This document shows, piece by piece, positions 2,488-23,140 of a stretch of 64,000 bases of DNA. The notes under the pieces were generated by a model. That model was not told the DNA's origin. It did no database searches and saw nothing but the letters and a program-made list of their open reading frames with translations. Location: positions 12,907 to 76,906 of the forward strand of contig JAJRXM010000006.1 in the NCBI GenBank assembly GCA_024276275.1. The letters are read 5' to 3'. This DNA is from Candidatus Zixiibacteriota bacterium (GTDB taxonomy: Bacteria; Zixibacteria; MSB-5A5; GN15; FEB-12). How positions within the stretch are numbered: the first letter of the stretch is position 1; the number at the start of each line of letters is the position of its first letter. A program made the position numbers and the translations under genes.

Positions 2488-2494
2488 AAAACGA

Positions 2495-6535: not shown

Positions 6536-6568
6536 AAAAAAAGCTGACGAAGAATGGCAGCTTTTTTT
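6536..6568 (-). terminator. Intrinsic terminator downstream of the cold-shock gene (bidirectional type)
   Basis: AAAAAAAGCTG...CAGCTTTTTTT inverted repeat with A/T tracts. Confidence 0.7.
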
Positions 6569-6605
6569 ATAAAATTTTAGATGTAAGACAAGGAGTACGT
6601 GTGTG

Positions 6606-6812: not shown

Positions 6813-6902
6813 GTAAATCCTCCATATTGAAGATTAACTGTTCCCACACTCATATTGAGTATAACAGTTATACGCAAAAGACACAAGAAAGAACTAAAAA
6901 AT

Positions 6903-7559
6903 TTACAAATTTTGTGATATTTTTATTAATAAAGTCATGAATAAACCAGAGAGAATCGGTACCGTAACATTGTCATCTATACCGAAAGAAAACGCTTCAA
7001 AAAACGTTCCGACAAACGCCCCTAAAAGCAGAATCGGCAATGTTACCTCAGGAACAGCTAACCCCATATAAAACACTAACATAGAGACGATTGCCATACC
7101 GACATAACACCCTATTGAACCGGCAATAGATTTGTTCTTATAGAATTTTGGAGATTTGATTTTACGACCAATTAATGCGGCAAAAGTATCCCCGACAATG
7201 ATAAAACTAATTGCTGTAATGGCTACCGACTTCTCATATAAAGCGATAGTTAAACAGAACGACATAAGTATATATGATGCACCGGTAAAGTCTCCTTTTG
7301 CCTCATGAGACCGTACCATCGGAGATAAAACTTTACGGATAATCTCTTGTCTCCAAAACCACCAATTTCTTAATCGAGAGACATCGGCAAATAAAATCAG
7401 AATAGCAAAAGGTATCATAATTGATAACATTTGTACTTTACTCAATTCTAAAAGATAATAAGTACCGGGAACAACTAAGGCACCCATGTGTGTACTTTTT
7501 CTAATTATCTCGTAAAAAAAACTAATTTGAGCAGGTTGCTCCTCTGCTGATTTCCCCAT
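6903..7559 (-). CDS. CTP-dependent lipid kinase (dolichol/phytol/diacylglycerol kinase family), membrane protein
   Basis: RKSTH, GDTFAALIG, KSIAGS, DDNVTVP motifs; multiple TM segments. Confidence 0.8.
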   Translation of the reverse strand: MGKSAEEQPAQISFFYEIIRKSTHMGALVVPGTYYLLELSKVQMLSIMIPFAILILFADVSRLRNWWFWRQEIIRKVLSPMVRSHEAKGDFTGASYILMSFCLTIALYEKSVAITAISFIIVGDTFAALIGRKIKSPKFYKNKSIAGSIGCYVGMAIVSMLVFYMGLAVPEVTLPILLLGAFVGTFFEAFSFGIDDNVTVPILSGLFMTLLIKISQNL

Positions 7560-7565
7560 TAAGCT

Positions 7566-9311
7566 TTATTTCCTTAAAGATTTCGGCTTCAGATGAACAG
7601 GATATAAAGTACCTTTGGATTGCACATGATATTTAGTGAACAATCGATCTTTAAAGTTTTTAAATACATTTTCTTTGTGTTCTTTTTTAAGAATAGGAAT
7701 AATCGTTCGTTTTGCTTCATCTAAAGTTTGTTCTTTTGCTATCTCTAAAACTTTAATCAAGTGATACCCAAATTCAGTTTTCACCGGATGAGACACTTCA
7801 CCGATTCGAGTCATTAAAGCAGCATTATAAAACTCTTTTGAAACATCATTTTCTCCGATATATCCCAAATTAGCCAAATCTTCTCTGATTGATTCTTCAC
7901 CCGGATAATGTTCTTTTGCCAACTGCATAAAATCAATCCCGGACATAGCTTGATCTCTTAAAAATTCACCAAAAACAGAATCCTCAACAATGATATGCTG
8001 TACTTTTAAAGGTTTTAAAACTTCAAAGTCAGCTGTATGACTGTTGTAATAATCCTCAATCATACTATCAGAAGGAGCCCATTGAGCATCAACCATTTGT
8101 TTGCTGACAACGGTTCTCGCATACTTATGATTTAGTTTTTCTCTTTGGTCTGTTAGAGCAGAATCTTTTTCAATACCTATTGCACGACCAGCCTGAACAA
8201 GTACATATCTTTCGCCAATTTGCCTGAACATCGCTTCTTTCATTTCAGCAGTAGTATTATCTACTTGGTACTTTTCTCTGAAAGTTAGTTCTAAAGACCG
8301 AGCTTCATTACAGTCAATTGTATCTATCCCGTTTATAATAGCTCCCCAAGTCCTACCTTTAATAACATAAATATTTCCATCTACAATCTCAGGATTCAGT
8401 TGTACATCAAAATCAGATAGTAAAGAATCTATCAGCTTATTACCTATCTCATTTGTTTTAACAGTTTGGAGTGTGGTTTTTGCGGCGATATATAAATTTT
8501 CATTTAGTTCCGGTAGACCGGCAGGATAGTACTCATTTGCCATAATAATATGCCAACCATTATTATCGCGATATGGTTCGGCTATATCACCGGCTCTTAG
8601 TTCAAACGCAATCGAATCAAAAGGATACGGATGTACTCCTTTTTTAGTCCAGCCAAGATACCCGCCTGTTCGTGCTGCGACTTCATCTTCTGTAAATTGT
8701 TTCGCTATTTCAGGGAATTTATCAGGTGAAGTAATAAGAGATTTAATAGAGTCGGCAAATTTAAACAATGCATCTTCCAAATCAACTTTGCTAAATTTTC
8801 TATACCGAAGAGAATCGGGACCAAATAATAATGTGTTTTTAGTTATAGCGATGTGATATAAATCAATCTGTTCTTCTATCGCGAATTTATCTTCATTGGC
8901 ATAATAATAGTCAACAATTTCCAGAGAGTCAGATTCAGCTTTATCATATACCATTTTTTTCAAATAGAGTCTGAGTAATATATCATAGTAACGGAGTTTA
9001 AACATTCTATACTGGCTATAATAGTCCGATAAATTAACTTCTGATGCTTCAAATCCCATCATCGAATCTAAAACTAATGAGTCTATAAATCCTCTTACCC
9101 GAGCTGTATCCAATACTCCACCCAGATTGAGTATTTTACTTTTATAAAGAGCATCGTATACTGTGTTCATTTCCAGACTATATCCATTATCTGCCGTAGC
9201 TACTAAAAACGGATAATCTTGATAATTTTTTTGAGAGATATTAAACGACGGTTTACATCCTAAAACTGCAATTAGAAGTAAAGCTGTTATTATTAGTTGT
9301 AACTTTTTCAA
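7566..9311 (-). CDS. Parvulin-type peptidyl-prolyl isomerase lipoprotein (SurA/PrsA-like, two rotamase domains)
   Basis: Lipobox AVLGC; GGYLGW...GWHII and LGYI...PVKTEFGYHLIKV. Confidence 0.85.
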   Translation of the reverse strand: MKKLQLIITALLLIAVLGCKPSFNISQKNYQDYPFLVATADNGYSLEMNTVYDALYKSKILNLGGVLDTARVRGFIDSLVLDSMMGFEASEVNLSDYYSQYRMFKLRYYDILLRLYLKKMVYDKAESDSLEIVDYYYANEDKFAIEEQIDLYHIAITKNTLLFGPDSLRYRKFSKVDLEDALFKFADSIKSLITSPDKFPEIAKQFTEDEVAARTGGYLGWTKKGVHPYPFDSIAFELRAGDIAEPYRDNNGWHIIMANEYYPAGLPELNENLYIAAKTTLQTVKTNEIGNKLIDSLLSDFDVQLNPEIVDGNIYVIKGRTWGAIINGIDTIDCNEARSLELTFREKYQVDNTTAEMKEAMFRQIGERYVLVQAGRAIGIEKDSALTDQREKLNHKYARTVVSKQMVDAQWAPSDSMIEDYYNSHTADFEVLKPLKVQHIIVEDSVFGEFLRDQAMSGIDFMQLAKEHYPGEESIREDLANLGYIGENDVSKEFYNAALMTRIGEVSHPVKTEFGYHLIKVLEIAKEQTLDEAKRTIIPILKKEHKENVFKNFKDRLFTKYHVQSKGTLYPVHLKPKSLRK

Positions 9312-9403
9312 TCTGAAACTCCATATTTATTTTATTGTTTTGCACAATAAATTATACACATTAATAGAAAAAACAAGGAGAATTCATTGAAAAAAATGAA
9401 AAA

Positions 9404-11089
9404 TTAGGCGTTTTGCGTAACGGGTAAAGTTGCCGAGTTGTTTTGAGGAATATATTTATTCAATTCTACCATAAATGTAGTACCTTCTCCCATTTGAGAG
9501 CTAATACTGATCGAGAGGTTTTGTGCTGAGCAAATTCTATGTACTATAGCTAACCCAAGTCCGGTACCTTCTTTTTTAGTAGAATAAAAGGGCTGGTATA
9601 TATGCTTCAGATGATGACTTTCAATTCCCGGGCCGTTATCTTGAATATACAATTCTACAATATCAGTAGAATCATGGACTGCTAATCTGAAAGTTAATTC
9701 ACCGCCTTTCTCCCCCATTGCTTCACAAGCATTCATAGCTAAGTTCAAGAGAAGCTGCTTGAAAAGGCTTTCATCCCCAATTACATACATCATCGATTCA
9801 TCTGATTCTATATTTATTTTAATACCGGAATGAAAAGACTTATGGTGATATAGTATCTCGATTACTTCCGATATAAGATGCAGAAGTTCTACTTTATTAT
9901 ATGACGGTCTATCTATTCTGGCATAAACTAAAAACTCGTTTAAAATATGGGACAACCTATCGGATTCTTTCACAATCAAAGACATAAGTTTAGCGTTTTC
10001 TTCAGATACATCTAGCTCGCTTTTTAGCACTTCAACCGAACCGGAAATAGCAGCTAATGGGTTTCGAATTTCATGAGCAATAGATGCTGACAGTTCTCCG
10101 ACAGCTGCCAGTTGGTCTGACATCCGTACTTTTTCCTCCAGCACTTTAGCATCAGTTAAATCCGAAAAAATTGCTATCACCCCACGAATCTGATTATTTT
10201 TTTCGGTTAAAACCGATGTAGATAACCCGACCGGTTTGCTTTGATTTTTATTATTAACAACAAATATTTCTTTTCTCGGATATGCAACATGGTTTTGAAT
10301 CCCCTGCATTAATATCTCAGCAAGGTCCGGCATTCTCTCGGAGAAAACTGTTGTGCAGGCAACTCCTTTTATATTTTCCTCTTTATAGTCCAGAATTCTT
10401 TCAGCTGCTTTGTTGAAATAAATTATTGCTCCGGTACTATCTATAGATAAAAGTCCTGAGTTTAAATGCTTTAAAATATCATCGGTCTCCAGTTTAGCTT
10501 TTTGCAATGCTAATGAAGCATCGGCAAGTTCTATATCTCTTTTTCGCAATCTTTCCGCCAAGTAACCCGAGATAAATGCTATCAGATAAAAAATAAGTAT
10601 ATGCATGAAAATCGGATAGAATATTGAATCACCGACAGAAAAAATTGTTTGTAGTGATTTCATAGAGAGATGCTGTACATTGTCTCCCCCAAACCCAAAC
10701 CAGATAATTAGTGCATAGGCTGCTGAAACAGTTGATGCTAAGAGTAAAGTACCGATTAGTCTAAAGACTAAAGAAGCTGAAATAATTGTTAAAATTAAGA
10801 GTATAGAATATTGAGAGTTGATATTTCCGGTAGTATATATAATACTTGATTCAATAAAAATTTCTAGAATAAATTGACAGCCGATTAAAAAGGATGTCAG
10901 GTTTTGTAAATTGTGACGTTTGTCCGTTGCTAGAAGAATTGAAAATCCAAGCGTTGCTATTGAATACAGTACAAATTGAAAATGCATAAAGTCGGGGAAT
11001 TCCATCGAGACACCGACAATAGCTGTCAATATTATATATTGTGCTAGTCGAAACGGAAGAAATAAGTTTTGTACTTTTAAGGTATTCAT
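9404..11089 (-). CDS. pilS: PilS-like membrane sensor histidine kinase (TM-PAS-HisKA-HATPase)
   Basis: TM region with TGNINSQYS, PAS domain, AHEIRNPL H-box, N/G1/F/G2 boxes; follows pilC. Confidence 0.8.
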   Translation of the reverse strand: MNTLKVQNLFLPFRLAQYIILTAIVGVSMEFPDFMHFQFVLYSIATLGFSILLATDKRHNLQNLTSFLIGCQFILEIFIESSIIYTTGNINSQYSILLILTIISASLVFRLIGTLLLASTVSAAYALIIWFGFGGDNVQHLSMKSLQTIFSVGDSIFYPIFMHILIFYLIAFISGYLAERLRKRDIELADASLALQKAKLETDDILKHLNSGLLSIDSTGAIIYFNKAAERILDYKEENIKGVACTTVFSERMPDLAEILMQGIQNHVAYPRKEIFVVNNKNQSKPVGLSTSVLTEKNNQIRGVIAIFSDLTDAKVLEEKVRMSDQLAAVGELSASIAHEIRNPLAAISGSVEVLKSELDVSEENAKLMSLIVKESDRLSHILNEFLVYARIDRPSYNKVELLHLISEVIEILYHHKSFHSGIKINIESDESMMYVIGDESLFKQLLLNLAMNACEAMGEKGGELTFRLAVHDSTDIVELYIQDNGPGIESHHLKHIYQPFYSTKKEGTGLGLAIVHRICSAQNLSISISSQMGEGTTFMVELNKYIPQNNSATLPVTQNA

Positions 11090-11098
11090 GTAATAAAG

Positions 11099-11126
11099 AA
11101 GCGGTGCTTATTAGGCACCGCTTTTT
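11099..11126 (-). terminator. Terminator-like hairpin between pilC and pilS
   Basis: AAGCGGTGC-N7-GCACCGCTT, followed by a weak U tract on the minus strand. Confidence 0.65.
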
Positions 11127-11150
11127 ACAATCGTTTGTTTATTAATATTT

Positions 11151-12347
11151 TTATATTTTTCCAATAATATCAAACATTGGAAGATACATAGCTATCAAGA
11201 TACCACCGATAACAACACCCATGAACACAATAATAATCGGTTCAATAACTGATGTTAAGGCAGTCACTGCTTCATCTACTTCTTCGTCGTAGAAGTCAGC
11301 AATTTTGTTAAGCATTTCATCAAGCCCACCTGTTTTTTCACCTACGGCAATCATCTGAGTTACCATTGGAGGGAATACCCCGGTTTCTTTTAACGGAGCA
11401 GTAATAGTATCACCCTCGGCAATAGCAAGAACCGATTTGTTAATAGCATTTGCTATTACCAAGTTACCCGCTGTTTTCGCAGTAATTTCCAGAGCTTCTA
11501 AAATTGATACACCTGAAGCCAACAGAGTACCGAGAGTTCTTGTAAACCGGGCAACAGATGACTTTCTTACTAACGTACCGATAACCGGCATGTGCAGTAA
11601 GATTTTATCCCACATCAAAGCACCTTGAGGTGTTTTTTTCCACCATATAAACAACGCTCCTAAACCGATTCCACCCAAAGTGAGATACATCATATTATCT
11701 TGTAAGAAATTCGATATTATTAAAACGACTTGTGTAGGCATCGGAAGCTCAGCATTCAAACCTCCAAACATCTTTGCAAATACAGGTACAATAAAGGCTA
11801 ACATACCGATAGTTACACCGGCGGCAACGACAACAATAACAGCCGGGTAAATCATGGCACCCTTTACTTTTCGAATCAATTGATCAGCTTTTTCACGATA
11901 GACAGCTAGTCTGTTTAGAATAGCATCTAAAGCACCACCGACTTCACCCGCTTCAACCATGTTGGTATATAATGTATCAAAAATTTTCGGATGACGAGCC
12001 AATGCTTCTGATAAAGTTGCACCGCCTTGTACTGAATCTTTTACTTGCACAACGATTTTTGCCAGTTCTTTATTTTCCATCTGAGAAGATAGAATATCTA
12101 AACATTGTACCATCGGTAAACCTGCACCGATCATAGTAGCAAATTGTCTTGTAAATCTTGATACATCAAGCCTTGCAACACCAGTACCGAATTTAATTTC
12201 GATATTAGCAGCTTTTTTTGATATAGATTTTACAATAATTCTATTCTGTCTGAGAATCCGCTCTAGGTCAGCTTTATTATCTGCTTTAATTTCGCCTGAA
12301 ACAGCAGCTCCTGCGAGAGTTTTTCCTTTATATTCAAATACCGGCAC
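11151..12347 (-). CDS. pilC: Type IV pilus platform protein PilC (T2SS F family)
   Basis: FTRQFATMIGAG, MVEAGEVGGALD, VGEKTGGLD, EPIII...MYLPMF. Confidence 0.95.
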   Translation of the reverse strand: MPVFEYKGKTLAGAAVSGEIKADNKADLERILRQNRIIVKSISKKAANIEIKFGTGVARLDVSRFTRQFATMIGAGLPMVQCLDILSSQMENKELAKIVVQVKDSVQGGATLSEALARHPKIFDTLYTNMVEAGEVGGALDAILNRLAVYREKADQLIRKVKGAMIYPAVIVVVAAGVTIGMLAFIVPVFAKMFGGLNAELPMPTQVVLIISNFLQDNMMYLTLGGIGLGALFIWWKKTPQGALMWDKILLHMPVIGTLVRKSSVARFTRTLGTLLASGVSILEALEITAKTAGNLVIANAINKSVLAIAEGDTITAPLKETGVFPPMVTQMIAVGEKTGGLDEMLNKIADFYDEEVDEAVTALTSVIEPIIIVFMGVVIGGILIAMYLPMFDIIGKI

Positions 12348-12373
12348 AGCTTATTCCTTTCCTTAAACTTTCT

Positions 12374-13450
12374 TTAGAAAGCAGGTGCTTTCTGATGTTT
12401 AGACATCATCTCACCCAATTCCTGTGCATTATGACTATAGTTCATCGCGTCATTTATTGTTATTTTATTATTTGTATATGATTCAAGTAATGATTGATTC
12501 ATTGTTCTCATACCGTATTTTTGTCCACCTTGCAGCATTGAATAAATTTGGTGTACTTTGTCATCACGAATTAAAGCACGAATAGCCGGAGTTACGACCA
12601 TTATCTCCATAGCCATCACACGTCCGCCACCTATTTTGGGAATCAAGGTTTGAGAAATTATCGCTTGTAAACTAAATGAAAGTGAAACGCGTATCTGTGC
12701 TTGTTGGTTAGCCGGAAAAGCATCGATAATTCTGTTGATAGATTCTGCTGCCGAGTTTGTATGCAAGGTTGCAAATGCCAAGTGACCTGTTTCGGCAATT
12801 GACAAGGCTGATTCAATTGTTTCTAAATCCCTCATCTCACCAATTAGGACTACATCGGGGTCTTCGCGAAGTGCGTACTTTAATGCCGATGCAAATGAAG
12901 GTGTATCTGAAAATACCTCGCGTTGATTTATGATAGCGGTTTGATGCCTGTGCAGATACTCAATAGGGTCCTCAACAGTAATAATATGAACCGGACGTTC
13001 ACGATTTACTTTATCAATAATTGATGCAAGCGTAGTTGATTTACCAGAGCCTGTCGGTCCTGTTACTAATACTAATCCACGTGGTAGCTTTGAAAGGTCT
13101 GCAATTACTTTAGGCAGGCCTAACTCTTCAAATGACTTTATCTCGTACGGAATCTGCCTGATAGCAATAGCCATGTTCCCTCGTTGCATAAACACATTAC
13201 AGCGAAAGCGACTCATTTGTTCAATACCAAAAGAGAAATCTAATTCTGAATTCTGTTCAAATTTCAGTTTTTGTTTTTCATTTAACATTGAATAACCAAT
13301 TTTTTTTGTTTGGTCAGATGTTAGAGCATCAAAATTTAACCGTTGTAACTTCCCGTCTACTCTTACAACAGGAGGGATACCTACTGTAATATGCAAATCA
13401 GAGGCGTTCATTTTAACCATTAATTCAAGTAATTCACGTAAAGAAACCAT
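12374..13450 (-). CDS. pilT: Type IV pilus retraction ATPase PilT
   Basis: GPTGSGKSTT, ALREDPD, TLHTNSA, AIRALIRD (AIRNLIRE-type motif), GMRTM. Confidence 0.97.
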   Translation of the reverse strand: MVSLRELLELMVKMNASDLHITVGIPPVVRVDGKLQRLNFDALTSDQTKKIGYSMLNEKQKLKFEQNSELDFSFGIEQMSRFRCNVFMQRGNMAIAIRQIPYEIKSFEELGLPKVIADLSKLPRGLVLVTGPTGSGKSTTLASIIDKVNRERPVHIITVEDPIEYLHRHQTAIINQREVFSDTPSFASALKYALREDPDVVLIGEMRDLETIESALSIAETGHLAFATLHTNSAAESINRIIDAFPANQQAQIRVSLSFSLQAIISQTLIPKIGGGRVMAMEIMVVTPAIRALIRDDKVHQIYSMLQGGQKYGMRTMNQSLLESYTNNKITINDAMNYSHNAQELGEMMSKHQKAPAF

Positions 13451-13505
13451 ACTTATATCTCCAGATAGATTTATAGTCGTAAGTAAAATTTGTATTTCTC
13501 TACTA

Positions 13506-13532
13506 TTATCGGTAAAAAAGCCGAATTCTTGA
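13506..13532 (-). promoter_or_regulatory. Putative sigma28 promoter for pilT-pilC
   Basis: Minus strand reads TCAAG-N14-ACCGATAA in the pilB-pilT gap. Confidence 0.7.
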
Positions 13533-13595
13533 AAGAAAAATAGACGTTTTTTGAATGATAAGTGGTTGAAAGACAGTTAATTTAGAATAGTGCAG

Positions 13596-15296
13596 CTAAC
13601 TTGAGACAGAAGTTGTAGAAACGACTTCCTCAAGTGCAACATCGCCGTTTTTCATTTTCTCAACAGCGCACATACGTAAAGAGAACATACCCTCACTTAA
13701 AGCACATTTACGTATATCAGAATCAGGTGCTTTTTTAAGTATCAAATGTTCGATATCGCTGGAAATAGGCATTACTTCATAAATACCGGTACGCCCCGCT
13801 TTTCCGGTTTGATTGCAGTCAGAACAGCCTTTCCCCTTAAATGCTCGAATTCCTTTTAATACATCATCCGGTACTTTAAGGTTTTTTACCTGTTCTTCAG
13901 TAAGATTTATTTCTTCTTTGCAGTTTTTACAAATCTTTTTCATCATTCTCTGAGCCATAATAAGTTTTGTGGCAGATGCAACCAGATAAAAAGGAACATC
14001 CATATCAATCAGACGATTTATAGACGATGGAGCATCGTTGGTATGTAGAGTCGAGAAAACTAAGTGACCTGTAAGAGCAGCACGAATAGCAATCTCGGCA
14101 GTTTCACCGTCACGAATCTCACCGACCATGATTACATCAGGATCCTGACGAAGGAACGATCTTAAGGCAGCTGCGAAAGTCATACCGATTTCCGATTTCA
14201 CCGCAACCTGATTGATTCCATCAAAGTTAAACTCAACAGGATCTTCCGCAGTCATAATATTAATATCAATAGTATTGATTTGCTTTAATGCCGAATACAA
14301 TGTTGTAGTTTTACCCGAACCGGTTGGCCCTGTTACTAAGATTATTCCGTAAGGTAAATGTATTTTATCTTCAAACTTTTTTAAATCTTCTTTTCTGAAC
14401 CCCAGTATAGTCATATCGACCATGAGTGCCATCGGGTCTAAAATACGCATTACGACTTTTTCACCGAAGATTGTAGGAAGAACAGAGACACGCAAATCAA
14501 CAGTACGCCCTGAAATTTTAATTTTAATACGTCCATCCTGCGGTAATCGTCGTTCGGAGATATCAAGTTCTGACATGATTTTAATACGAGAAACTATGGC
14601 AGCTCGGTATTTAAACGGAAGAGGTGCCATCTCACGAAGTTCCCCATCAATTCTGTAACGCACTCGAATACGTTTCTCATACATTTCAAAGTGAATATCA
14701 GATGCGCCCATACGAATAGCATCAGAAATAATTGAGTCAACTAATTTAACAAGAGGTTTATCTTGAATTTGCGAAAGTAAATCAGATTCAGACGGACCGT
14801 CATCTTCTGAAACAACTTCTAAATCAGAATCTTCTTCAAGCCCTTTCACTATTTCAGATAATGCTCCTGCGTCGACATAATAAGTATCAATTGCCTTTTC
14901 AATAGCTTTCTCGGGAGAGATAACCGGTTGAACAGTACAGCCGGTAATAAATTTAATCGCATCTAAAACATAGATGTTATTAGGGTCAGAAATAGCGACT
15001 AATAAATTTTTATTTAATTTAGTAATTGCAATTACTTTAAATTTACGGGCAATATCAAGAGGGATAAGTTTAACTACAGAGGGATTGAGTTCAATATCGT
15101 TGAGACGTAATGTACCGATTTTAAGGTTTTTTCCAACTAACTTTGCAATTTCATCCTGCGATGCAATAGCACCGATACTAACTAAGGCATCCTGAAAGTT
15201 TTCTTTATTCTTCGTAGCATGTGCTTTAGCTTTTTCAGCTTGTTCTGTTGTTATTTTACCGGCTTGCACCAGCATGGTGCTTAAATCTGATGACAT
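13596..15296 (-). CDS. pilB: Type IV pilus extension ATPase PilB
   Basis: ERRLPQDGRI, GPTGSGKTTT, LRQDPD, tetracysteine motif CKNC/CSDC. Confidence 0.95.
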   Translation of the reverse strand: MSSDLSTMLVQAGKITTEQAEKAKAHATKNKENFQDALVSIGAIASQDEIAKLVGKNLKIGTLRLNDIELNPSVVKLIPLDIARKFKVIAITKLNKNLLVAISDPNNIYVLDAIKFITGCTVQPVISPEKAIEKAIDTYYVDAGALSEIVKGLEEDSDLEVVSEDDGPSESDLLSQIQDKPLVKLVDSIISDAIRMGASDIHFEMYEKRIRVRYRIDGELREMAPLPFKYRAAIVSRIKIMSELDISERRLPQDGRIKIKISGRTVDLRVSVLPTIFGEKVVMRILDPMALMVDMTILGFRKEDLKKFEDKIHLPYGIILVTGPTGSGKTTTLYSALKQINTIDINIMTAEDPVEFNFDGINQVAVKSEIGMTFAAALRSFLRQDPDVIMVGEIRDGETAEIAIRAALTGHLVFSTLHTNDAPSSINRLIDMDVPFYLVASATKLIMAQRMMKKICKNCKEEINLTEEQVKNLKVPDDVLKGIRAFKGKGCSDCNQTGKAGRTGIYEVMPISSDIEHLILKKAPDSDIRKCALSEGMFSLRMCAVEKMKNGDVALEEVVSTTSVSS

Positions 15297-15339
15297 TACT
15301 TACATTCTCTTTTTTATATTTTTACAACTGTCTTTTAAG

Positions 15340-15828
15340 TTAATCCTGAAAAATATCATCAAGTTTATCTTCTGCTTGAGCAGCAAAATCTGAATCAATT
15401 CCGGATTGTTTATCCCGATCAGAATTTTGAATATCTGTAAAAACTTTTCTGAGTTCGGCACTAGTTTCTTTTGCATACAAACGTACCATACCGATTGTAG
15501 TTCTGTCATCAAAGATTACAACTAGAATTGACCTTTCTCCAACAATAGACATGTGGATATGATCTTTTTTTCCCTGATGAAACAAAACAGAGAACTCGGG
15601 TTCGCCGACTAATTTGGCAATTTCTTTTGTTGAAGCAAATGACCCTGCCAACAAAGCTGCCAAGGCAGTTGTATCTAATGAGTGCGTAAATCCCTGACGA
15701 GTTATCAGATGTCCGTCTTTATCAACTAAAAGAGCACATTTTGCTTCAGCACCTTTTAACATTTTTGAAATCAACGCATCAATCTTGTTAATCTCTTCTT
15801 CGTAGAAAATTAAATTATCTTCAGCCAT
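15340..15828 (-). CDS. mglB: MglB roadblock/LC7 GTPase-activating protein
   Basis: Closely resembles Myxococcus MglB (YEEE..KI, LVDKDG, DTTALAAL.AG, VVIFD.RT..G.VRL) including the acidic C-terminal helix DDIF. Confidence 0.9.
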   Translation of the reverse strand: MAEDNLIFYEEEINKIDALISKMLKGAEAKCALLVDKDGHLITRQGFTHSLDTTALAALLAGSFASTKEIAKLVGEPEFSVLFHQGKKDHIHMSIVGERSILVVIFDDRTTIGMVRLYAKETSAELRKVFTDIQNSDRDKQSGIDSDFAAQAEDKLDDIFQD

Positions 15829-15845
15829 TTTGACCTCCGTGAGGA

Positions 15846-16832
15846 CTATTTTAAACCGAACAATCTTTTAAAGAATCCTCGTTTTTTCTCCTTACGTGTT
15901 TTCATAGAAGGAGCCATCGAGGGAACATGCACTGATGTATCATCGGCATTATTCTTCGCAGGTTGTTCAATATTTTTTACTTGTTGAGTAGAAGCACCGT
16001 CAGTCGCTGATTGTTGCGATTGGGATGGTTCCGTTTTAACTTGTTTTATTTTTTGAGACATACTTCCCGGATACGGTCTGTGTTGTTCGTCAACATCAGA
16101 AACCGCAGTTGCGGTAGCCGAGGAAACAGGTTGCATCGGTTCATTTGGTTGTTGTAAGACCGGAGGAACTGAATCTTGTATACCTTGTTGAGCAGGTTGT
16201 ACATCATCCGGTTGTTCAAGTACAACAGCTTTCTTAGCAGCAGGTGAAGCAGTATCTTTTGCTTTGTTCAAAACAATTTTGATAATACCTTTTAGAGTAT
16301 CAAAGACTCCGTTACCAACTGTAGCAGATGCGACAAAGAATGGACGTCCTTTAGGGTTCAATTGTGGATTTAGTTGCTCAGGTCCTAAGACACCCGGTAA
16401 ATCACATTTGTTATATTGAATCACAAAAGGGAGCTCATCTATATCATATCCGTATTCAACGAGGTTATCTTCTAAGTTAGAAAGAGATTCAATATTTTCA
16501 TCCATTTTATCAGGTTGACTATCAGCCACAAATACAACACCGTCAACACCACGTAAAACTAATTTACGTGTAGCATTATAATACACCTGTCCCGGAACAG
16601 TATAGAGTTGAAATTTTGCCGCAAATCCATTTATAGAACCGATATTTATCGGCAGGAAGTCAAAATACAACGTTCGGTCAGCTTCAGTCGCCAGCGAAAT
16701 CATTTTTCCGCGAGTATTAGACGGTACTTTGGAATGTACATAGAGCAAGTTTGTGGTCTTGCCTGACAAACCGGGACCGTAATACACAATTTTGCAACAA
16801 ACTTCTCTTGATGAATAGTTTATCGATACCAT
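15846..16832 (-). CDS. mglA: MglA small Ras-like GTPase with ~135-aa C-terminal extension
   Basis: KIVYYGPGLSGKTTNL, DRTLYFDFLP, YTVPGQVYY, NKCD; tail ends KKRGFFKRLFGLK. Confidence 0.92.
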   Translation of the reverse strand: MVSINYSSREVCCKIVYYGPGLSGKTTNLLYVHSKVPSNTRGKMISLATEADRTLYFDFLPINIGSINGFAAKFQLYTVPGQVYYNATRKLVLRGVDGVVFVADSQPDKMDENIESLSNLEDNLVEYGYDIDELPFVIQYNKCDLPGVLGPEQLNPQLNPKGRPFFVASATVGNGVFDTLKGIIKIVLNKAKDTASPAAKKAVVLEQPDDVQPAQQGIQDSVPPVLQQPNEPMQPVSSATATAVSDVDEQHRPYPGSMSQKIKQVKTEPSQSQQSATDGASTQQVKNIEQPAKNNADDTSVHVPSMAPSMKTRKEKKRGFFKRLFGLK

Positions 16833-16847
16833 AGTGATATTCCTGTT

Positions 16848-17189
16848 TTATGCATTCACTTTTAACTTACTGATTGCATTTTTAATCTCTAATCGGATCA
16901 ATCCGATATTAACCGATTTTTCGGTTGTAACGACTAATATCCCTAAGCCGGCATCAGTAAAAAACAACTTACCTTCATCCGCTTCAATAGTAACTTGTTT
17001 GAGCGGTGTAGTTTTTAATCTATCCAAAGATTTTTGGATGTTTGCGGTTATTGATGCCGCCAAAGCACCAATAGTATCGCCTTCAAATGATTCATCGAGA
17101 TCAGCGGCAATAACAATACCGTCGTGTCCGACAACCATAGAACCGGTAATACCGGTTGTTTTGTTTAGTTCATTTAATACATCATACAT
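16848..17189 (-). CDS. Stand-alone roadblock/LC7 protein (MglB/MglC-like)
   Basis: GITGSMVVGHDGIVIAA...GALAA...NIGLIRLEI. Start MYDVL at 17189 after GGAGAG, overlapping the upstream stop. Confidence 0.85.
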   Translation of the reverse strand: MYDVLNELNKTTGITGSMVVGHDGIVIAADLDESFEGDTIGALAASITANIQKSLDRLKTTPLKQVTIEADEGKLFFTDAGLGILVVTTEKSVNIGLIRLEIKNAISKLKVNA

Positions 17190-18168
17190 ATATTCTCTCC
17201 GCGTTCCCGATAAGTTTTTCATCATATCGTTCTGCTGTATAGATTCTTATCATTTCAAGAGCCTGGTTAATACGTATATTTAAAATGTCATCCATGGAAC
17301 GTTCCGAGATGACAACCAAGGTATAATAGTTTTCAGATGCGATAATCAATCTTTGATTTTCAAACATCATATCAGTTTTTTCAGGTACAGTCAGTTGCAT
17401 TTTATGTAATGTCATTTTGTTTTGTTCAACAATCGGTAACACCAACGGTGCAATATCTTCCGCCTCAAACATTGCTCTTTGATAACTTGACAACAACAGA
17501 CCTTCATAGTCAACAACTGCCGCCATTAGTACGGTACCGTTTTCACCGATATAATTCACCGCTTTCTGAAATCCGATTTCATTTACCGAACTCTTTTGTG
17601 ACGACCTAAACGGTTGGGATTCAGAAAGTTGCGAAGTAACTTGAGGTTGTTCTTTGTTGATGTTTTCTTTTGTAACAACAAACGATGACGCACCTGCTAA
17701 ATGGCTTTTATCAACAGTTGGCTCATTGAGAGATGCCGCAGGTTTCGGAGTAGTCGCGTAGAATTTTTTTTGAGCGATAAATATCGGTTTTAAAATAAAA
17801 GGTGTCGCTAAAACATGTGAACCGACTGCCGGCCAGAAAGATGATGTTCCAAACGATATAGTAACACCTAGATTCATGTCATACATTAAGGCAATCAATC
17901 CTCCCAACATAACACCCAAAACATATCGAGCGACAAAACAAATAGTAGCATTTGTAAACAATCTTGCTAAAGTCGTCTCTTTGTTAAAGAAGAAGAGACA
18001 AAAACCGTAAAATACTATTTCCAATGCTATGGTAGTAAAAGAGGCATTCACCATAGATGACTGCATTAATTTTGTACCCAATAATACAGGGAACAATACC
18101 ATCGGTATAATTAATACAAACAACGCAAACAAAACCATTTGTCTTATAATACGTCCATCAATTTCCAT
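17182..18168 (-). CDS. Membrane protein (about 4 TM) with C-terminal roadblock/LC7 domain
   Basis: Hydrophobic N-terminal ~130 aa, S/P/Q-rich linker, then VLMAAVVDYEGLLLS roadblock-like motif. Confidence 0.7.
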   Translation of the reverse strand: MEIDGRIIRQMVLFALFVLIIPMVLFPVLLGTKLMQSSMVNASFTTIALEIVFYGFCLFFFNKETTLARLFTNATICFVARYVLGVMLGGLIALMYDMNLGVTISFGTSSFWPAVGSHVLATPFILKPIFIAQKKFYATTPKPAASLNEPTVDKSHLAGASSFVVTKENINKEQPQVTSQLSESQPFRSSQKSSVNEIGFQKAVNYIGENGTVLMAAVVDYEGLLLSSYQRAMFEAEDIAPLVLPIVEQNKMTLHKMQLTVPEKTDMMFENQRLIIASENYYTLVVISERSMDDILNIRINQALEMIRIYTAERYDEKLIGNAERIYV

Positions 18169-18186
18169 ACTTTATCCTTCAACTAT

Positions 18187-19086
18187 TTACCGGTACATAC
18201 CGAGTAAACTTTCAATTTTCATTCGTAAACTACCGAGGTTCGATTTTTCACCTGCGACAAAAACAAATAGTCCGATATCAACCCGTTGTACATAGTAGGT
18301 ATATCCGGTTGCTTCAATCAAAACAGTTTTAAAGTTCCCAAAAGATGATTCCATCAATTCCTGAGAAAGAAGTAAACTTAAGTCGCCGAGTGTAGCCCCA
18401 CAAAGTTCTACCTCGGTTTTGAGTGTCCACTCAGACTCTAAGACCAGTCCTTCTTTGTTGACTAAAAAGAGTCCGTCAACACCAACAATTTTGATTCCTT
18501 GTTCAATAACATCTTGTGCTGAAAGCTCTGTTTTTTCAACTACAGGTTGTGCAATAACAGGTGTTGGTATTTCAGCTTTTTCAAATTCCTTACTTGTCGT
18601 CATAATAGTTTTTTCTTCGCTTGCATTACTATTATAATTTTCAGTCTGAATTAGCACCTTCTGTTCTTCAGGTATTTTTTTGGCAATATCTAAAAGTCTA
18701 TTTATTTGGGTATTATACGGGTCAGCGTTATGTAGTTTTTTCAACAATTTAATTGCTGTTTGAAATTCCCCCCGATAGATATAAATTTCAGATAACAACA
18801 ACTCAATAGTTCTACTTTTGCCGTCAATTTCGGCAGCTTTTTTCGCTTCAACCATAGCCCAATCATATAGACCTCTATCAAGGTTGATTTTAGCCATAAC
18901 AACGTGAGCAGCTCCGTAAGACGGATGTATTTTTAACCCGCTTTGACAGACCCGAAAAGCGTTATCAAAATCGCCTTTTTTTCGGTAAGCATCTGCTAAT
19001 GCGGCAAAAATCTGCGAATTAGGATCAACATCAAGAATCTTCCGACATTTATCAATCCGCTCATCTATTTCAATAGAACTTATCAT
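18187..19086 (-). CDS. TPR-repeat protein with C-terminal roadblock/LC7 domain
   Basis: DPNSQIFAALADAYRKKG TPRs; GVDGLFLVNKEGLVL...NLGSLRMKI roadblock pattern. Confidence 0.8.
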   Translation of the reverse strand: MISSIEIDERIDKCRKILDVDPNSQIFAALADAYRKKGDFDNAFRVCQSGLKIHPSYGAAHVVMAKINLDRGLYDWAMVEAKKAAEIDGKSRTIELLLSEIYIYRGEFQTAIKLLKKLHNADPYNTQINRLLDIAKKIPEEQKVLIQTENYNSNASEEKTIMTTSKEFEKAEIPTPVIAQPVVEKTELSAQDVIEQGIKIVGVDGLFLVNKEGLVLESEWTLKTEVELCGATLGDLSLLLSQELMESSFGNFKTVLIEATGYTYYVQRVDIGLFVFVAGEKSNLGSLRMKIESLLGMYR

Positions 19087-19147
19087 ATATCTTATAACTG
19101 TTTTCCAATTAAAACGTTACGAAAATCTCATATTTCTCTAAAGGGTA

Positions 19148-19176
19148 AATATATACCATATAAAAACTTATGTCAA
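19148..19176 (-). promoter_or_regulatory. Putative sigma70 promoter internal to the mgl cluster
   Basis: TTGACA-N17-TATATT upstream of the TPR-roadblock gene. Confidence 0.55.
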
Positions 19177-19189
19177 CTTTATAATACTA

Positions 19190-19546
19190 TTATTCCAAAG
19201 TCTTTTTTGTCTCAAATACTCCAAACATAAACAAACCGAGTGCTAATAGTAAAAGAGCCGGAACGGCAAAAGAAGGCAACATAAAAATCTCAAAATCGTG
19301 CAGTAAATTTGCAAGTTGAGAAATCATGAGTACAGCAAAAGCTGAAAGAAAGATTTGCCAACTTTTAAAAAGTAGCCCTCCTCGAAGAAGAGACAATATC
19401 TTTACACTTCCGACCAAACAACCAAGTCCTACTAATAAAAGAACAGCACTTAACATTGTTGGAGGTTGAGTAATTACCGCAAAATTGGCAGCATGTGCAT
19501 CAGCACCAAGCAATAATAAACTAAATAGAACATAATTTTTTTTCAT
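19190..19546 (-). CDS. Small membrane protein (signal peptide plus about 3 TM)
   Basis: AHA-A cleavage-like site and three hydrophobic segments; starts 1 bp after the DUF4388 stop. Confidence 0.75.
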   Translation of the reverse strand: MKKNYVLFSLLLLGADAHAANFAVITQPPTMLSAVLLLVGLGCLVGSVKILSLLRGGLLFKSWQIFLSAFAVLMISQLANLLHDFEIFMLPSFAVPALLLLALGLFMFGVFETKKTLE

Positions 19547-19547
19547 T

Positions 19548-20753
19548 TTATCCTCGAACCATTTTTATGACTTTATCGGCACGTTTAATTGATTTATAAA
19601 AGTTTTCGTCTATTGCATATCGTTTTACTAGTTCTCTCCGAAAAGCGATAGGTTCAGCTATCTCTTTTTTCACTTTACTCACCGCATGATGATAAACCCC
19701 GTCACCCAATAGTTGAAAGACAAATTCCAATTGTTCCGACAGCATTGATTCAAGACCGGACATTAATTTATGATATCTGTTTTCTTTCGGAAGTGCATGT
19801 ACAGCCTCGATAAATTTATCTAGTTTAGGTCCAAGTTCAGAATTTGGATCGGTTCCGGGAAAGTATGCAAAAATTGAGCTCCTGTATTGCGAGACAAAGT
19901 CGTTAAAGCGTCTGTTTTCCATCCCCAAAATAGAGTCTACCGAATTTCTAATACGGTAAAAGCAGTTATTATACAGATTAAAAATTATCCCTAAGACAAC
20001 CTCTTCCTCATTTACTTTTATCTCTTCTTGGGCACTTTCAACTTTTCCGTTTGATTCAATCAGCTTGCTTAATATAAGTTTATAAACTGCCCGACAAGTT
20101 ACAAATTCACCTAATGGAGAGATACTCATTAAATCGGTCAAGGTTCTTTCACCGTTTATAAGTGTAACAACTCGGTACTCTTCCATACTAAAACGAACTT
20201 CTTCATTTTTAGTTTTTGGAGATGTTGCCAAGGCTAAACGAACATCATCGGGAGGGAGAACTTTTTGAATTTCAAGCCACTCATCAATACGACGAGTACC
20301 TTCCATAACAACATTCATCGTACTCAACTCTATCAGAAAAGGAGCATTTTTAGGTTTGCTACCTTCGTGAAAATAGAAATCACCCTCCTGCCAAGAAAAG
20401 AGATTATAGACGACCTCTTCAATTTGCAGTTTTAAACATTCGGCAATTTCTTCTTTATCAAAAAGATTCATATCAATAAGTGTAGTGCCTAATTGACGTC
20501 CGGTTTGTTTGTGCAACGTAATAGCTCTGTTGAGATCCTCTTTGGTTATTCTTCCACGATGTAGAAGCATATTCCCAAGTAAATCTTCAGAGGCGTTTAC
20601 TGATGAGGCATAAATGATATTTCCGTTCTTAAAGGAAACTTCTTTTTGTCTCGTAGAGGTCTTCAGCTCCAGAATACCGGTCTTTTTACCGGTTGCCAAT
20701 AGTTGTAAAATGTCTGGAAAAGATACTGTTTTTAAATTGCCCGCTAAACTCAT
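19548..20753 (-). CDS. DUF4388 (PatA_N-like) domain protein with internal MshEN-like repeat
   Basis: MSLAGNLKTVSFPDILQLL...KKTGIL, LFSWQEGDFYF, MEGTRRIDEW. Confidence 0.85.
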   Translation of the reverse strand: MSLAGNLKTVSFPDILQLLATGKKTGILELKTSTRQKEVSFKNGNIIYASSVNASEDLLGNMLLHRGRITKEDLNRAITLHKQTGRQLGTTLIDMNLFDKEEIAECLKLQIEEVVYNLFSWQEGDFYFHEGSKPKNAPFLIELSTMNVVMEGTRRIDEWLEIQKVLPPDDVRLALATSPKTKNEEVRFSMEEYRVVTLINGERTLTDLMSISPLGEFVTCRAVYKLILSKLIESNGKVESAQEEIKVNEEEVVLGIIFNLYNNCFYRIRNSVDSILGMENRRFNDFVSQYRSSIFAYFPGTDPNSELGPKLDKFIEAVHALPKENRYHKLMSGLESMLSEQLEFVFQLLGDGVYHHAVSKVKKEIAEPIAFRRELVKRYAIDENFYKSIKRADKVIKMVRG

Positions 20754-20811
20754 ATTATGCCCTCAAATGCATTAAATAGCGTTTTTATTCACTATGGATA
20801 TTTCTTAATAT

Positions 20812-20839
20812 ATATCGGGAAAAAAGAAGGATTTCTTAA
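20812..20839 (-). promoter_or_regulatory. Putative sigma28 promoter heading the DUF4388-mgl-pil cluster
   Basis: Minus strand reads TAAG-N15-CCCGATAT. Confidence 0.6.
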
Positions 20840-20872
20840 TTAATAAAGAAGAAAAAGAATAGTATTGTTGTC

Positions 20873-23134
20873 TTAAAACGGTATTTGAATAAGATATTCC
20901 GAATGATTATATAAATCAACGAATAAGTCCTCTGCCAACAGGTCTACATCTTCATTACCGGGAATATTTGTCTGTGCAATTTTTGAACAAATGACCTTTT
21001 CATATTGTAAATCTTTCAAAGTGAGATAGTCGTGTAGTGATATGTTCCAACTTGAACCAATTATTAAAATTCGTTTAAGCTTATCATTAAACGGTTGTAA
21101 ATTCTTTTGGGAAATTTTATCTACAAAGGTAATTTCATAACCTGTTGTTTTGAGTGAAAAACTGTTTTCATACAGTGAATAACCTATATCAAAATCCTCA
21201 GATTCAAGTTCTTGTAAAACTTCTAATTTTATTGCTAGTAATCCCTCGACAGTATTTTTTATTTTGTCGATAAAACTATTTTGAAGGCTCTTCGGCAGAT
21301 AGATACTATTTACTTCATACCTCTCCGCAATTCTAAGTAAGTCATCAATAGCCGAATAATCTGATTTGAGTACAATCAGTTTATCAATTTTCTTAATTTT
21401 TCTACTTTCTAGTTTCGGTATAATGATTTTTTCATCAATCAGATATGACTTCCCTTTGATACCGTTGATAATAAGATCAACTTCATTGTTTTCTATATTC
21501 ACAATCGCCATATTCCCTCCCGGAACAGTTGTACAAAGTACACTAATGTAATCATAACGATTCAAAGCAGTTATAGCTTGATTAATGGCGAATATGTTTA
21601 AAAACACCAACATGACAATCAAAGTTTTTCGACGGTTTGTTTTAGAGAGCAGAGCAAACGGAGCCATAAACAAGACTATATATAGACAAATAACCCCTAT
21701 GATTGTCCAATCATACACCTTTATCATCGGCATAGAACCTGCCCCGAAAATATCAACTATATAAACGGTAAAAGTAAGCAGCAGATTTAAAAAAGCTCCG
21801 ACAAAAAGCCCTAATAAAGGCAAAATAAAATCTGCCACGAGCAGAACCAAAACCCCTATTACTGCTGCCGAGACTAACGGTACAACAAATAGATTAGCTA
21901 TCGGAGATAACAAAGGTATCTGTTTGAAATAAAGCCCTATTAAGCCGAATGAAAATATCTGAGCAGTTAAAGAAATAAGAAACGGAAATAATAGAAATTC
22001 ATACCATTTTTTCAGGTGGTGTTTTTCAAGTAAGATATTCAACTTAGGAACAACTAAAATTAAACCCCAGGCAATTACAAATGAAAGCTGAAAACCTAAA
22101 TCAAATAGTTGGGACGGATCATACAAAAGGATCAGAAAGGCAGCAACAGCAATAAGGTTTTGCAGTTGATACCTTCTTTCTACCAAGCCTGCCCCTAAAA
22201 CCAACCCTGCCATAAGCGATGCCCGCAACACCGAAGGTTCTCCATAAGATAATAAAGAGAAAAGTATAACAACAGCCATCAAAAACAGAGCCCTCTTTTT
22301 TGTGTTCTTAAGAAGAGGATTAAACAAAAAACTAAAAAAAGTAATGACCAAAATAACATTTGAACCGGAAACTGCCAATAAATGTAATGTTCCGGAATCT
22401 TTAAAGCGTGTATATAATTCCGGAGGGATATCGCGAGTTTCACCGATTAAAAACCCTGAAGCTAATGCCGCCGAAACAGGTGAAAGGTTCCTATAAAGAC
22501 TCTTTGTAATAGCATTTCGTAATTGTTCAACAAGTGGAATTAAGGAATATCGACCTACCTTGTCATGTAAAACATTTAGTGGTGTAGTTAGATAGACAAC
22601 TCCACAAATTTCTTTGTATCGCAAAAACCGATTATAATTAAATTCCTTTGAAAAGCTTTTCCCCTCAACCGCATATATCCGACCTTCAAGAACAAGATTA
22701 TCTCCTCGTTGAAAAGAAGTTGTAAGACTGTTTATTTTTAAAAGAATTTTACCACGTACTGATACAGTCTTTACGTTTTCTAACGAATCAACATCTATGG
22801 TCAGTTCCGTTCTTTCTGATTTTAATTCCGGCCAATCAGCAACTTTGCCATAAATAACATAGGTCGATTTACTGTCAATATAGTTTGATATATGATTAGG
22901 TCCTGACTCATAATACATAGATGCAAACCGGACTCCCACAAACGATAACAGCCCAAGACCTATAGATATCAGTAGAAGTTTTTCTTTTTGAGATTTATAA
23001 CAGAATAAAGAACCGACAACAAACAGAACCAAAGAAAGAAAAAAGTAAGAGATGTCAAAACGATAATAATCAGCAACAAGAATTCCGGTTACAACAAAAA
23101 TCAAAAGAAACAACGCCGGAGATTTCTTAAACAT
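20873..23134 (-). CDS. comEC: ComEC/Rec2 DNA uptake channel
   Basis: DUF4131/OB region, GTLHLLAVSGSN, PSVLRA, DLGFQLSF; C-terminal MBL-like region is degenerate. Confidence 0.9.
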   Translation of the reverse strand: MFKKSPALFLLIFVVTGILVADYYRFDISYFFLSLVLFVVGSLFCYKSQKEKLLLISIGLGLLSFVGVRFASMYYESGPNHISNYIDSKSTYVIYGKVADWPELKSERTELTIDVDSLENVKTVSVRGKILLKINSLTTSFQRGDNLVLEGRIYAVEGKSFSKEFNYNRFLRYKEICGVVYLTTPLNVLHDKVGRYSLIPLVEQLRNAITKSLYRNLSPVSAALASGFLIGETRDIPPELYTRFKDSGTLHLLAVSGSNVILVITFFSFLFNPLLKNTKKRALFLMAVVILFSLLSYGEPSVLRASLMAGLVLGAGLVERRYQLQNLIAVAAFLILLYDPSQLFDLGFQLSFVIAWGLILVVPKLNILLEKHHLKKWYEFLLFPFLISLTAQIFSFGLIGLYFKQIPLLSPIANLFVVPLVSAAVIGVLVLLVADFILPLLGLFVGAFLNLLLTFTVYIVDIFGAGSMPMIKVYDWTIIGVICLYIVLFMAPFALLSKTNRRKTLIVMLVFLNIFAINQAITALNRYDYISVLCTTVPGGNMAIVNIENNEVDLIINGIKGKSYLIDEKIIIPKLESRKIKKIDKLIVLKSDYSAIDDLLRIAERYEVNSIYLPKSLQNSFIDKIKNTVEGLLAIKLEVLQELESEDFDIGYSLYENSFSLKTTGYEITFVDKISQKNLQPFNDKLKRILIIGSSWNISLHDYLTLKDLQYEKVICSKIAQTNIPGNEDVDLLAEDLFVDLYNHSEYLIQIPF

Positions 23135-23140
23135 AGTTTT

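Follow-up and report, generated by a model that had tools for sequence, protein, structure and literature searches.

A conserved MglA/MglB and roadblock gene block between comEC and the type IVa pilus motor genes of Zixibacteria, a probable regulator of the motor

Introduction

To our knowledge, MglA and MglB are the model for a Ras-like switch in bacterial polarity, and nearly everything known about them comes from one organism. Here, we describe a different arrangement of the two genes in Candidatus Zixiibacteriota bacterium, found on a stretch of 64,000 nucleotides (nt) that was analysed as a whole and is called the window below (GenBank assembly GCA_024276275.1, contig JAJRXM010000006.1, positions 12,907 to 76,906). 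A block of seven genes, reaching from a PATAN/DUF4388 gene to mglB, is inserted there between comEC and the genes pilB-pilT-pilC-pilS. On balance, we believe that this regulatory block governs the timing or the place of type IVa pilus motor activity.

Roadblock domains pair with one another and are regulators of small GTPases. MglB is described as the GTPase-activating protein (GAP) of MglA (PMC4316618), and roadblock and longin platforms are reported to act as guanine nucleotide exchange factors and GAPs for small GTPases (PMC3747258, PMC9481161). In Myxococcus xanthus, MglA-GTP binds SgmX, a tetratricopeptide repeat (TPR) protein that, according to two reports, recruits PilB to the pole or pilus base (PMC7519303, PMC11580455); MglA of Bdellovibrio is likewise reported to bind a TPR protein, Bd2492, and in Thermus MglA and MglB are said to affect which pole carries pili (PMC12024867). 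The PATAN domain (synonymous with DUF4388 and PF14332; PMC12448109) of Synechocystis is described as membrane-located and as binding PilB1 and the N terminus of PilC (bioRxiv 10.1101/2021.06.11.447907). MglA and MglB genes also occur near PATAN genes, and in the text of Wuichet and Sogaard-Andersen the neighbourhoods of this MglA group vary widely, with PATAN genes only occasional (PMC4316618). The same source describes the actinobacterial conservon CvnA-D, an operon that combines genes for a sensor kinase and a roadblock protein with one for an MglA-family GTPase.

The links of MglA/MglB to PATAN proteins, of MglA to a TPR effector and PilB, and of PATAN to PilB and PilC are already in print, and the component families and the connection of MglA to type IV pili are known. 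New at the locus described here are four roadblock proteins, including fusions to four transmembrane (TM) helices and to TPRs, a MinD-like anchor on MglA, the embedding in a pilBTC operon and conservation across the phylum. Our literature search found nothing that joins Zixibacteria and MglA; the supplementary neighbourhood tables of PMC4316618, which may list pilus-linked mglA loci, lay outside this search.

Results

The locus comprises eleven co-directional genes lying head to tail on the minus strand (positions 9404-20753 of the window), in the order PATAN/DUF4388 protein, small TM protein, TPR-roadblock protein, 4TM-roadblock protein, roadblock protein, MglA, MglB, PilB, PilT, PilC and PilS. 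A first-pass annotation made from the DNA letters had given the same order and called it tightly spaced, which agrees with intergenic distances between a 44-nt overlap (genes as called) and 145 nt and with median gaps of 15-16 nt in the block. Upstream of the block lie comEC and murJ, and downstream of the locus follows a gene for a peptidyl-prolyl isomerase (PPIase). As in M. xanthus, MglA and MglB are accompanied by an additional roadblock paralogue and a TPR protein, with the type IVa pilus motor as the presumed output. Unlike in M. xanthus, mglA precedes mglB in Zixibacteria, and both lie inside the pilBTC operon.

Gene order was compared in 30 loci at the level of the order and 20 at the level of the class, the latter from 14 further families, which gives 50 loci from 18 families in all. 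The series from murJ, comEC and the PATAN gene through pilS was kept in all 30 order-level loci over the length that the contigs cover (pilS is included in 26, and the other four are cut off by contig ends). At class level, the order from the PATAN gene to pilB was found in 20/20 loci and continued to pilS in 19/20. The gene order, on whose conservation in relatives the first-pass annotation had made its reading depend, is thus kept in 50/50 Zixibacteria loci within the reach of their contigs. ComEC was found upstream of the block in 29/30 order-level and 18/20 class-level loci. Furthermore, the 4TM-roadblock protein was found in 40/41 relatives and, in a phylum-wide sample of 201 genomes, in 199 (18/19 families). 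A related-locus search with the roadblock alignment stayed among close relatives, its best 80 loci all being at least 71% identical.

The two sampled genomes without the 4TM-roadblock protein, G105 and G004, also lack MglA. In G105 (family f17, 96% complete), comEC is followed after a gap of 290 nt by pilB (64% identical), pilT, pilC and pilS (locus L157, G105:C30:49000-68900, ~4864-13720). No MglA, no 4TM-roadblock protein, no Robl_LC7 match and no cluster-type PATAN protein were found in this genome; its matches to the PATAN-protein profile cover only the MshEN-like part and lie in the N termini of PilB-type ATPases. Since all seven block genes are absent while the flanks, comEC and pilB, are still joined, the block was gained or lost as a unit, and this lineage offers a natural control in the form of a deletion variant. 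In G004, which belongs to the same genus, the orthologous PilB is missing as well (best match 41%), perhaps because the entire locus was lost or because the assembly is incomplete there. The window's own genome has a single copy each of MglA, MglB, the small membrane protein and the other three roadblock proteins.

MglA (15846-16832, minus strand; 328 amino acids [aa]) consists of a G domain (residues 1-195) and a Q/S/P-rich tail. Residues 3-192 align one to one with M. xanthus MglA (5ymx_A, E = 1.5e-75), and the P-loop GPGLSGKT is found at positions 19-26. Eleven residues are invariant in 47 MglA sequences, namely G19, G21, K25, T26, R53, T54, T78, G81, Q82, N141 and D144, so that the NKxD motif is kept. 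We take R53 to be the intrinsic arginine finger and Q82 to be the catalytic glutamine. A threonine (Thr78) where DxxG has its Asp is described as a hallmark of the MglA family (PMC3000849). Judged by these residues, MglA belongs to the M. xanthus-type MglA family and retains all catalytic residues of the group. It is the sole MglA-type GTPase found in the genome, and mglB, which begins 17 nt after mglA, is adjacent to it in 50/50 loci. The actinobacterial conservon has the same operon ingredients, and its cvnB5 (3leq) weakly matches the roadblock domains described below; the Zixibacteria locus differs from it by an MglA of M. xanthus type (R53, Q82), by the lack of a CvnC (DUF742) gene and by its tie to pilus genes.

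Unlike M. xanthus MglA, the protein carries a long tail whose end resembles a membrane-targeting sequence (MTS), a feature that the first-pass annotation did not mention. Among 51 sequences, MglA is 314-480 aa long (median 366). The disordered tail spans 120-285 aa; its linker is of low complexity, rich in Q, S, P, V and A, and varies in both length and sequence, and no Pfam or NCBIfam family was detected in the tail. The window's MglA ends in KKRGFFKRLFGLK, of which the polybasic amphipathic end ...EKKRGFFKRLFGLK (15849-15893, minus strand) is a putative MTS, on grounds of conservation and likeness to MinD. The last 30 aa are conserved in 30/30 order-level orthologues with the pattern MAPS..(K/R)..KKRGFFKRLFG(I/L)K, and all 20 class-level orthologues end in a Lys/Arg run followed by an aromatic-rich stretch. 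In the set of 51 sequences, the net charge of the last 20 aa is +8 at the median, and the highest hydrophobic moment over 11 residues reaches a median of 0.50 in the end, compared with 0.23 in the linker.

The MTS of Escherichia coli MinD is given as KGFLKRLFGG (PMC5471200). The stretch GFFKRLFG of the window's MglA is identical to GFLKRLFG of MinD at 7/8 positions, and because of this match we strongly infer that the MglA tail binds the membrane. As in MinD, the stretch stands at the extreme C terminus and is polybasic and amphipathic, and by design the polybasic anchor also resembles the hypervariable region of KRas; unlike in MinD, it is joined to a Ras-like GTPase through the long disordered linker. 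No match to MinD above the family cut-off was found in the window's own genome, and among the papers listed by our literature search, none dealt with amphipathic or membrane-targeting tails of MglA. In a homologue search with the MglA G domain, all 120 matches listed were 83-100% identical, and thus near relatives only; 117 had a length of 311 aa or more.

Four roadblock-domain proteins are encoded in the block, beside mglA-mglB and upstream of pilB-pilT-pilC-pilS, with one fused to a membrane domain and another to TPRs, as the first-pass annotation had read them. A direct search with the Robl_LC7 model recovers only half of this set: MglB (1e-13) and the stand-alone roadblock protein (1.5e-13) were matched, while the roadblock domains of the TPR and 4TM proteins went unmatched by Pfam. 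These two Pfam-detectable roadblock genes are the only ones in the whole genome. MglB (15340-15828, minus strand; 162 aa) matches the MglB structure 6izw_B over residues 5-161, including the C-terminal helix (3.3e-40), and is a roadblock GAP by this likeness; its score of 98 bits with NCBIfam NF052242 falls under the 200-bit equivalog cut-off, which is tuned to Thermus.

The stand-alone roadblock protein (16848-17225, minus strand; 125 aa as called) is highly conserved, with a mean column identity of 72% and 55-68% identity at class level, on par with MglA and MglB. Its profile matches the Asgard Roadblock 7yh1_D at 3.3e-13, MglB at 0.03 and MglC (7ct3_A) at 0.52; the identity as MglC was therefore rejected, and the protein is not an orthologue of M. 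xanthus MglC. From the pattern of conservation, its real start is more likely Met13 at 17189, which would make the gene share 8 nt with the end of its upstream neighbour. The conserved start overlaps the stop codon of the 4TM-roadblock gene in 38/42 loci, so the two genes are probably translationally coupled. A 149-aa open reading frame (ORF) antisense to the roadblock gene (16834-17283, plus strand) is most likely a by-product of the coding frame on the opposite strand.

The TPR-roadblock protein (18187-19086, minus strand; 299 aa) begins with about three to four TPRs (residues 1-140), which a variable linker connects to a roadblock domain at about 190-299. Pfam TPR families match residues ~20-135, although these matches are generic, and the last 118 aa gave no Pfam match as a single sequence. 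Compared with the Protein Data Bank as a profile of 27 orthologues, the same 118 aa matched the Roadblock/LC7 protein 7yh1_D at 8.3e-10 over 108 residues, and LAMTOR2 at 1.6e-4. Furthermore, several orthologues, in a listing made up of near relatives, have a precomputed PF03259 annotation. SgmX of M. xanthus is 1,060 aa long (PMC7519303), whereas the TPR protein found here is much shorter and has a roadblock domain.

The 4TM-roadblock protein (17182-18168, minus strand; 328 aa) has four TM helices at residues 5-125 and a roadblock domain at 199-314, with a disordered linker (146-196) between them, and is matched by no model of Pfam or NCBIfam. A profile of its last 138 residues matched dynein roadblock at 1.2e-4, with 19 of the 20 listed matches being roadblock proteins, and the C terminus aligned with the other two roadblock domains in hhalign at 82% probability (E = 1e-5). 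The AlphaFold2 model, built from 26 sequences, has a mean predicted local distance difference test (pLDDT) score of 78, shows helices over residues 5-138 and exceeds a pLDDT of 90 over 199-314. In it, the C-terminal domain adopts the order a-b-b-a-b-b-b-a (H199-208, E213-220, E225-230, H236-256, E264-268, E272-278, E282-289, H294-314). Foldseek matched this domain to the Asgard Roadblock 7yh1_A (E = 1.1e-7, TM score 0.81, root mean square deviation [rmsd] 2.0) and also to MglB and LAMTOR2, with 130 matches at E <= 1e-3. Both roadblock domains missed by Pfam, which the first-pass annotation had assigned to the TPR and TM proteins, are therefore real, and it is for this reason that the block counts four. 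No recognisable family was found for the N-terminal membrane domain (the best Protein Atlas score, 0.79, is a level reached by shuffled proteins). With only 207 representatives among 1.84 billion proteins at E <= 1e-3, the 4TM-roadblock protein is, by its profile, a narrow family.

Where M. xanthus has one extra roadblock domain, this locus has three, two of them in fusions. Several roadblock proteins beside a small GTPase, together with a membrane anchor, are also the design of the eukaryotic Ragulator-Rag system (LAMTOR1-5, RagA/C), and LAMTOR2 is among both the sequence and the structure matches of the new roadblock domains. The likeness to Ragulator that the first-pass annotation had drawn holds to this extent; in the parts, it does not. 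MglA lacks the C-terminal roadblock domain of the Rag proteins and is a single GTPase rather than a heterodimer, and the anchor would be a polytopic membrane domain plus the amphipathic tail of the GTPase instead of a lipidated wrapping subunit. Among the block proteins, neither a LAMTOR1-like protein nor a wrapping scaffold was found.

The first gene of the block encodes a PATAN/DUF4388 protein (19548-20753, minus strand; 401 aa) with a PATAN domain (residues 1-165) that holds an MshEN-like insert (~54-113), followed by a winged-helix-like domain (~168-241) and a helical bundle (247-401). The PATAN domain is clearly present, as in the cyanobacterial PatA-type regulators PixE and PixG: Pfam PF14332 matches residues 4-159 at 1.3e-34, with 119.3 bits against a gathering score of 25. 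Unlike PatA-type regulators, the protein has no receiver domain, and its helical insertion matches the MshEN module, which binds cyclic di-GMP (c-di-GMP). NCBIfam NF053729, a model of the MshE-related c-di-GMP motif, matches residues 59-110 (48.4 bits against a cut-off of 38). In the AlphaFold2 model (pLDDT 82), the inserted four-helix module superposes on c-di-GMP-bound PilF GSPII-B (8pdk_B) over 52 columns with an rmsd of 1.0 and 35% identity in a local Foldseek comparison, and on MshE with c-di-GMP (5htl_B) with Z = 6.9 and an rmsd of 1.9 over 58 aligned residues. Two motif-like stretches start at residues 58 and 87; they are 29 residues apart, the spacing also reported for MshEN motifs (PMC5013675). 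The LG pair, the turn glycine, the leucine positions and Q110 of the insert are conserved.

Foldseek found no global match for the whole PATAN protein. The structural matches of residues 168-241 (winged-helix-like, Z ~7) and 247-401 (helical) are within the range of common arrangements, and matches to GATOR1/SEA subunits were weak (probability 0.2-0.6). Two more DUF4388/PATAN proteins were found in the window's genome (G000:C13:29883-30581 and G000:C39:39130-39444, in open frames of 299 and 722 aa). In one relative (L022 of genome G003, ~12541-13700), the PATAN gene matches as two pieces, residues 1-237 and 241-401, which suggests a frameshift or an assembly error.

The second gene encodes a small membrane protein (19190-19546, minus strand; 118 aa) with a signal-peptide-like N terminus and about three TM helices. 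It has no Pfam or NCBIfam family, and its Protein Atlas look-alikes are hypothetical proteins of Zixibacteria only. A TM-rich ORF of 86-160 aa was found at this position in 48/50 loci by a scan for ORFs and hydrophobicity, and in the other two by tblastn.

The four genes downstream of the block encode the motor and a kinase, all on the minus strand. PilB, the extension ATPase of type IVa pili (13596-15296; TIGR02538, 684.4 bits versus a cut-off of 675.65), and PilT, the retraction ATPase (12374-13450; TIGR01420, 498 versus 319 bits), exceed the cut-offs of curated models, which identifies the motor as that of a type IVa pilus; the platform protein PilC (11151-12347) matches NF052606 over its full length at 1.2e-147, below the equivalog cut-off. 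The PilS-type sensor kinase (9404-11089) has 6TM_PilS, PAS, HisKA and HATPase_c domains. No PilR or other response-regulator gene adjoins it, the next gene being that for the PPIase. In one relative (L032 of genome G018, ~1-7600), PilB, PilT and PilC matched in many short pieces while the upstream genes were intact, probably through indel errors in the assembly and not decay. PilM is encoded on another contig of the window's genome, which also has a second PilB/PilC-like pair and a second PilT elsewhere. At G000:C9:20865-25555, a PilB-like (41% identity) and a PilC-like protein (29% identity) lie beside a PilM_2-like match and make up a second type II secretion or pilus system.

A putative sigma-70-like promoter, TTGACA-17-TATATT (19148-19176, minus strand), lies in the 103-nt gap before the TPR-roadblock gene. 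It is the best promoter match in the region 7000-25000, with 11/12 positions, and GTTGACATAA is invariant in 10/10 aligned relatives, with a TATAAT-like box after it, while the rest of the gap varies. After pilC, a consensus match points to a terminator-like hairpin (11099-11123, minus strand) with a 9-bp stem, six G-C pairs and a T-rich tail. A predicted transcription unit would run from this promoter to the hairpin. ComEC, the DNA-uptake channel and conserved upstream neighbour (20873-23134, minus strand; Pfam Competence, 9.5e-53), is separated from the PATAN gene by a gap of 119 nt; together with the likewise conserved MurJ, it takes up positions 20873-24706.

Discussion

A sequence of events by which the block could act on the motor can be sketched from these parts. 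MglA would be tethered at the inner membrane by its tail, and the roadblock domains would pair into a membrane-bound platform, with the 4TM protein as the link to the membrane in those loci that have it. This platform would place the TPR protein, tune the nucleotide state of MglA beside MglB, or both. MglA-GTP would then take the TPR protein as its effector in the manner of SgmX and bring PilB to the PilC base, so that pilus extension begins, and GTP hydrolysis would terminate the licensing of PilB. The PATAN protein may bind PilB and PilC as its Synechocystis counterpart does, and provide a second, possibly c-di-GMP-dependent, input. A complex prediction that paired the TPR domain (1-145) with MglA residues 1-197, GTP and Mg scored 0.20 and 0.12 versus a mark of 0.32; it was run without control pairs and counts neither way.

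Several observations weigh against a regulatory block that governs the motor. Every contact among the block proteins and with the pilus motor in this sketch is an inference, and the membrane binding of the MglA tail is predicted from its sequence. Long-range synteny is generally high in the phylum, with MurJ, ComEC and the PPIase likewise staying in place, so a conserved order by itself counts for little as proof that the genes work together. Locus L132 of the class-level set (genome G104, ~1-5856) shows no PilT, PilC or PilS behind PilB in the 5.8 kb retrieved. The stand-alone roadblock protein, with its E value of 0.52 to 7ct3, is not MglC-like by sequence. The MshEN motif of the PATAN insert is non-canonical: the leading Arg is replaced by L or Q in both stretches, and motif 1 ends in H. 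No PATAN window fully fits the relaxed MshEN pattern either, with 17/22 constrained positions, compared with a mean of 12.6 and a maximum of 16 after shuffling. Weighed against the family and structure matches, this leaves c-di-GMP binding plausible but not established. Finally, in 3/50 loci, from families f9 and f14, the place of the 4TM-roadblock protein is taken by a soluble roadblock protein of 133-160 aa, so the 4TM anchor is not universal. The membrane-tethered roadblock complex suggested in the first-pass annotation would be held by the 4TM domain where that is present; the most widespread tether of the system would be the C-terminal amphipathic tail of MglA itself, predicted in 51/51 sequences.

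The furthest-reaching interpretation is that Zixibacteria use a membrane GTPase signalling of eukaryotic type, in which MglA with its flexible linker and polybasic anchor works next to a hetero-oligomeric roadblock platform beside MglB, as a counterpart of Ragulator, and licenses the extension ATPase locally, replacing the pole marking by RomR, RomX and MglC. We regard this as possible, though distinctly doubtful.

Two other explanations seem unlikely to us. In the first, the block regulates a competence pilus for DNA uptake and not motility polarity, with MglA/MglB and the roadblock proteins switching PilB and PilT for transformation together with ComEC. The position of ComEC immediately upstream of the block in nearly all loci, and next to PilB where the block is missing (G105), would suit such a role, and the pilus encoded at the locus may indeed serve DNA uptake. 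MurJ and the PPIase are equally conserved neighbours, however, so the adjacency of ComEC may be plain synteny; also, 119 nt separate comEC from the PATAN gene, and the block contained no further recognisable competence gene. This explanation and a block governing the type IVa pilus motor are mutually compatible.

In the second, which we consider improbable to a similar degree, the three extra roadblock domains do not form a scaffold but replace the RomR/RomX/MglC/RomY layer of M. xanthus and set the nucleotide state of MglA as an exchange factor, a co-GAP or a GAP inhibitor. Such activities would be in keeping with those reported for roadblock and longin platforms (PMC3747258, PMC9481161) and with a stand-alone roadblock protein that is as conserved as MglA and MglB. 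Unlike in M. xanthus, no receiver-domain or Frz gene was found within the window: the genome has 40 receiver-domain and three CheW matches, none of which falls there. The first-pass annotation had noted no RomR, RomX or Frz genes in the window, which agrees with this count as far as receiver domains and CheW are concerned; RomX, RomY and RomR were not searched by family, so their genome-wide absence is not established.

Least likely is that the extra roadblock, TPR and PATAN proteins are mere neighbours, with MglA and MglB paired in the cytoplasm in the usual way and the five remaining genes given to unrelated membrane or signalling tasks: the high synteny of the phylum, the hypothetical nature of all interactions in the block and the lack of a recognisable family for the small membrane protein and the 4TM N-terminal domain would allow it, but the seven genes are jointly absent in G105 with the flanks joined, their coding regions overlap or nearly abut, roadblock proteins regulate small GTPases and only one MglA-type GTPase was found in the genome, and the genome's only two Pfam-detectable roadblock genes sit in the block.

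If the block does govern the type IVa pilus motor, it would represent a second design of a polarity switch, compact and strongly conserved, in which one operon unites the switch with three further roadblock proteins, a likely effector, a possible c-di-GMP sensor and the motor itself. An operon with a self-anchored GTPase would also be a short, testable list of the parts by which a small GTPase reaches the pilus motor. The block proteins are small and suited to work in vitro, although the phylum is uncultured. Furthermore, the origin of membrane-bound roadblock platforms such as Ragulator could be studied here in a bacterial example.

About 33 kb past the end of the window, the same contig carries a chemosensory region (L158, G000:C42:106000-121477) with CheA, CheB, CheR, a CheZ-like protein, a HEAT-repeat protein and several single-domain receivers. 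Next to this cluster are genes for a sigma-54 response regulator and a PAS kinase. The region could provide an upstream input of the Frz or Chp kind, or the missing PilR partner.

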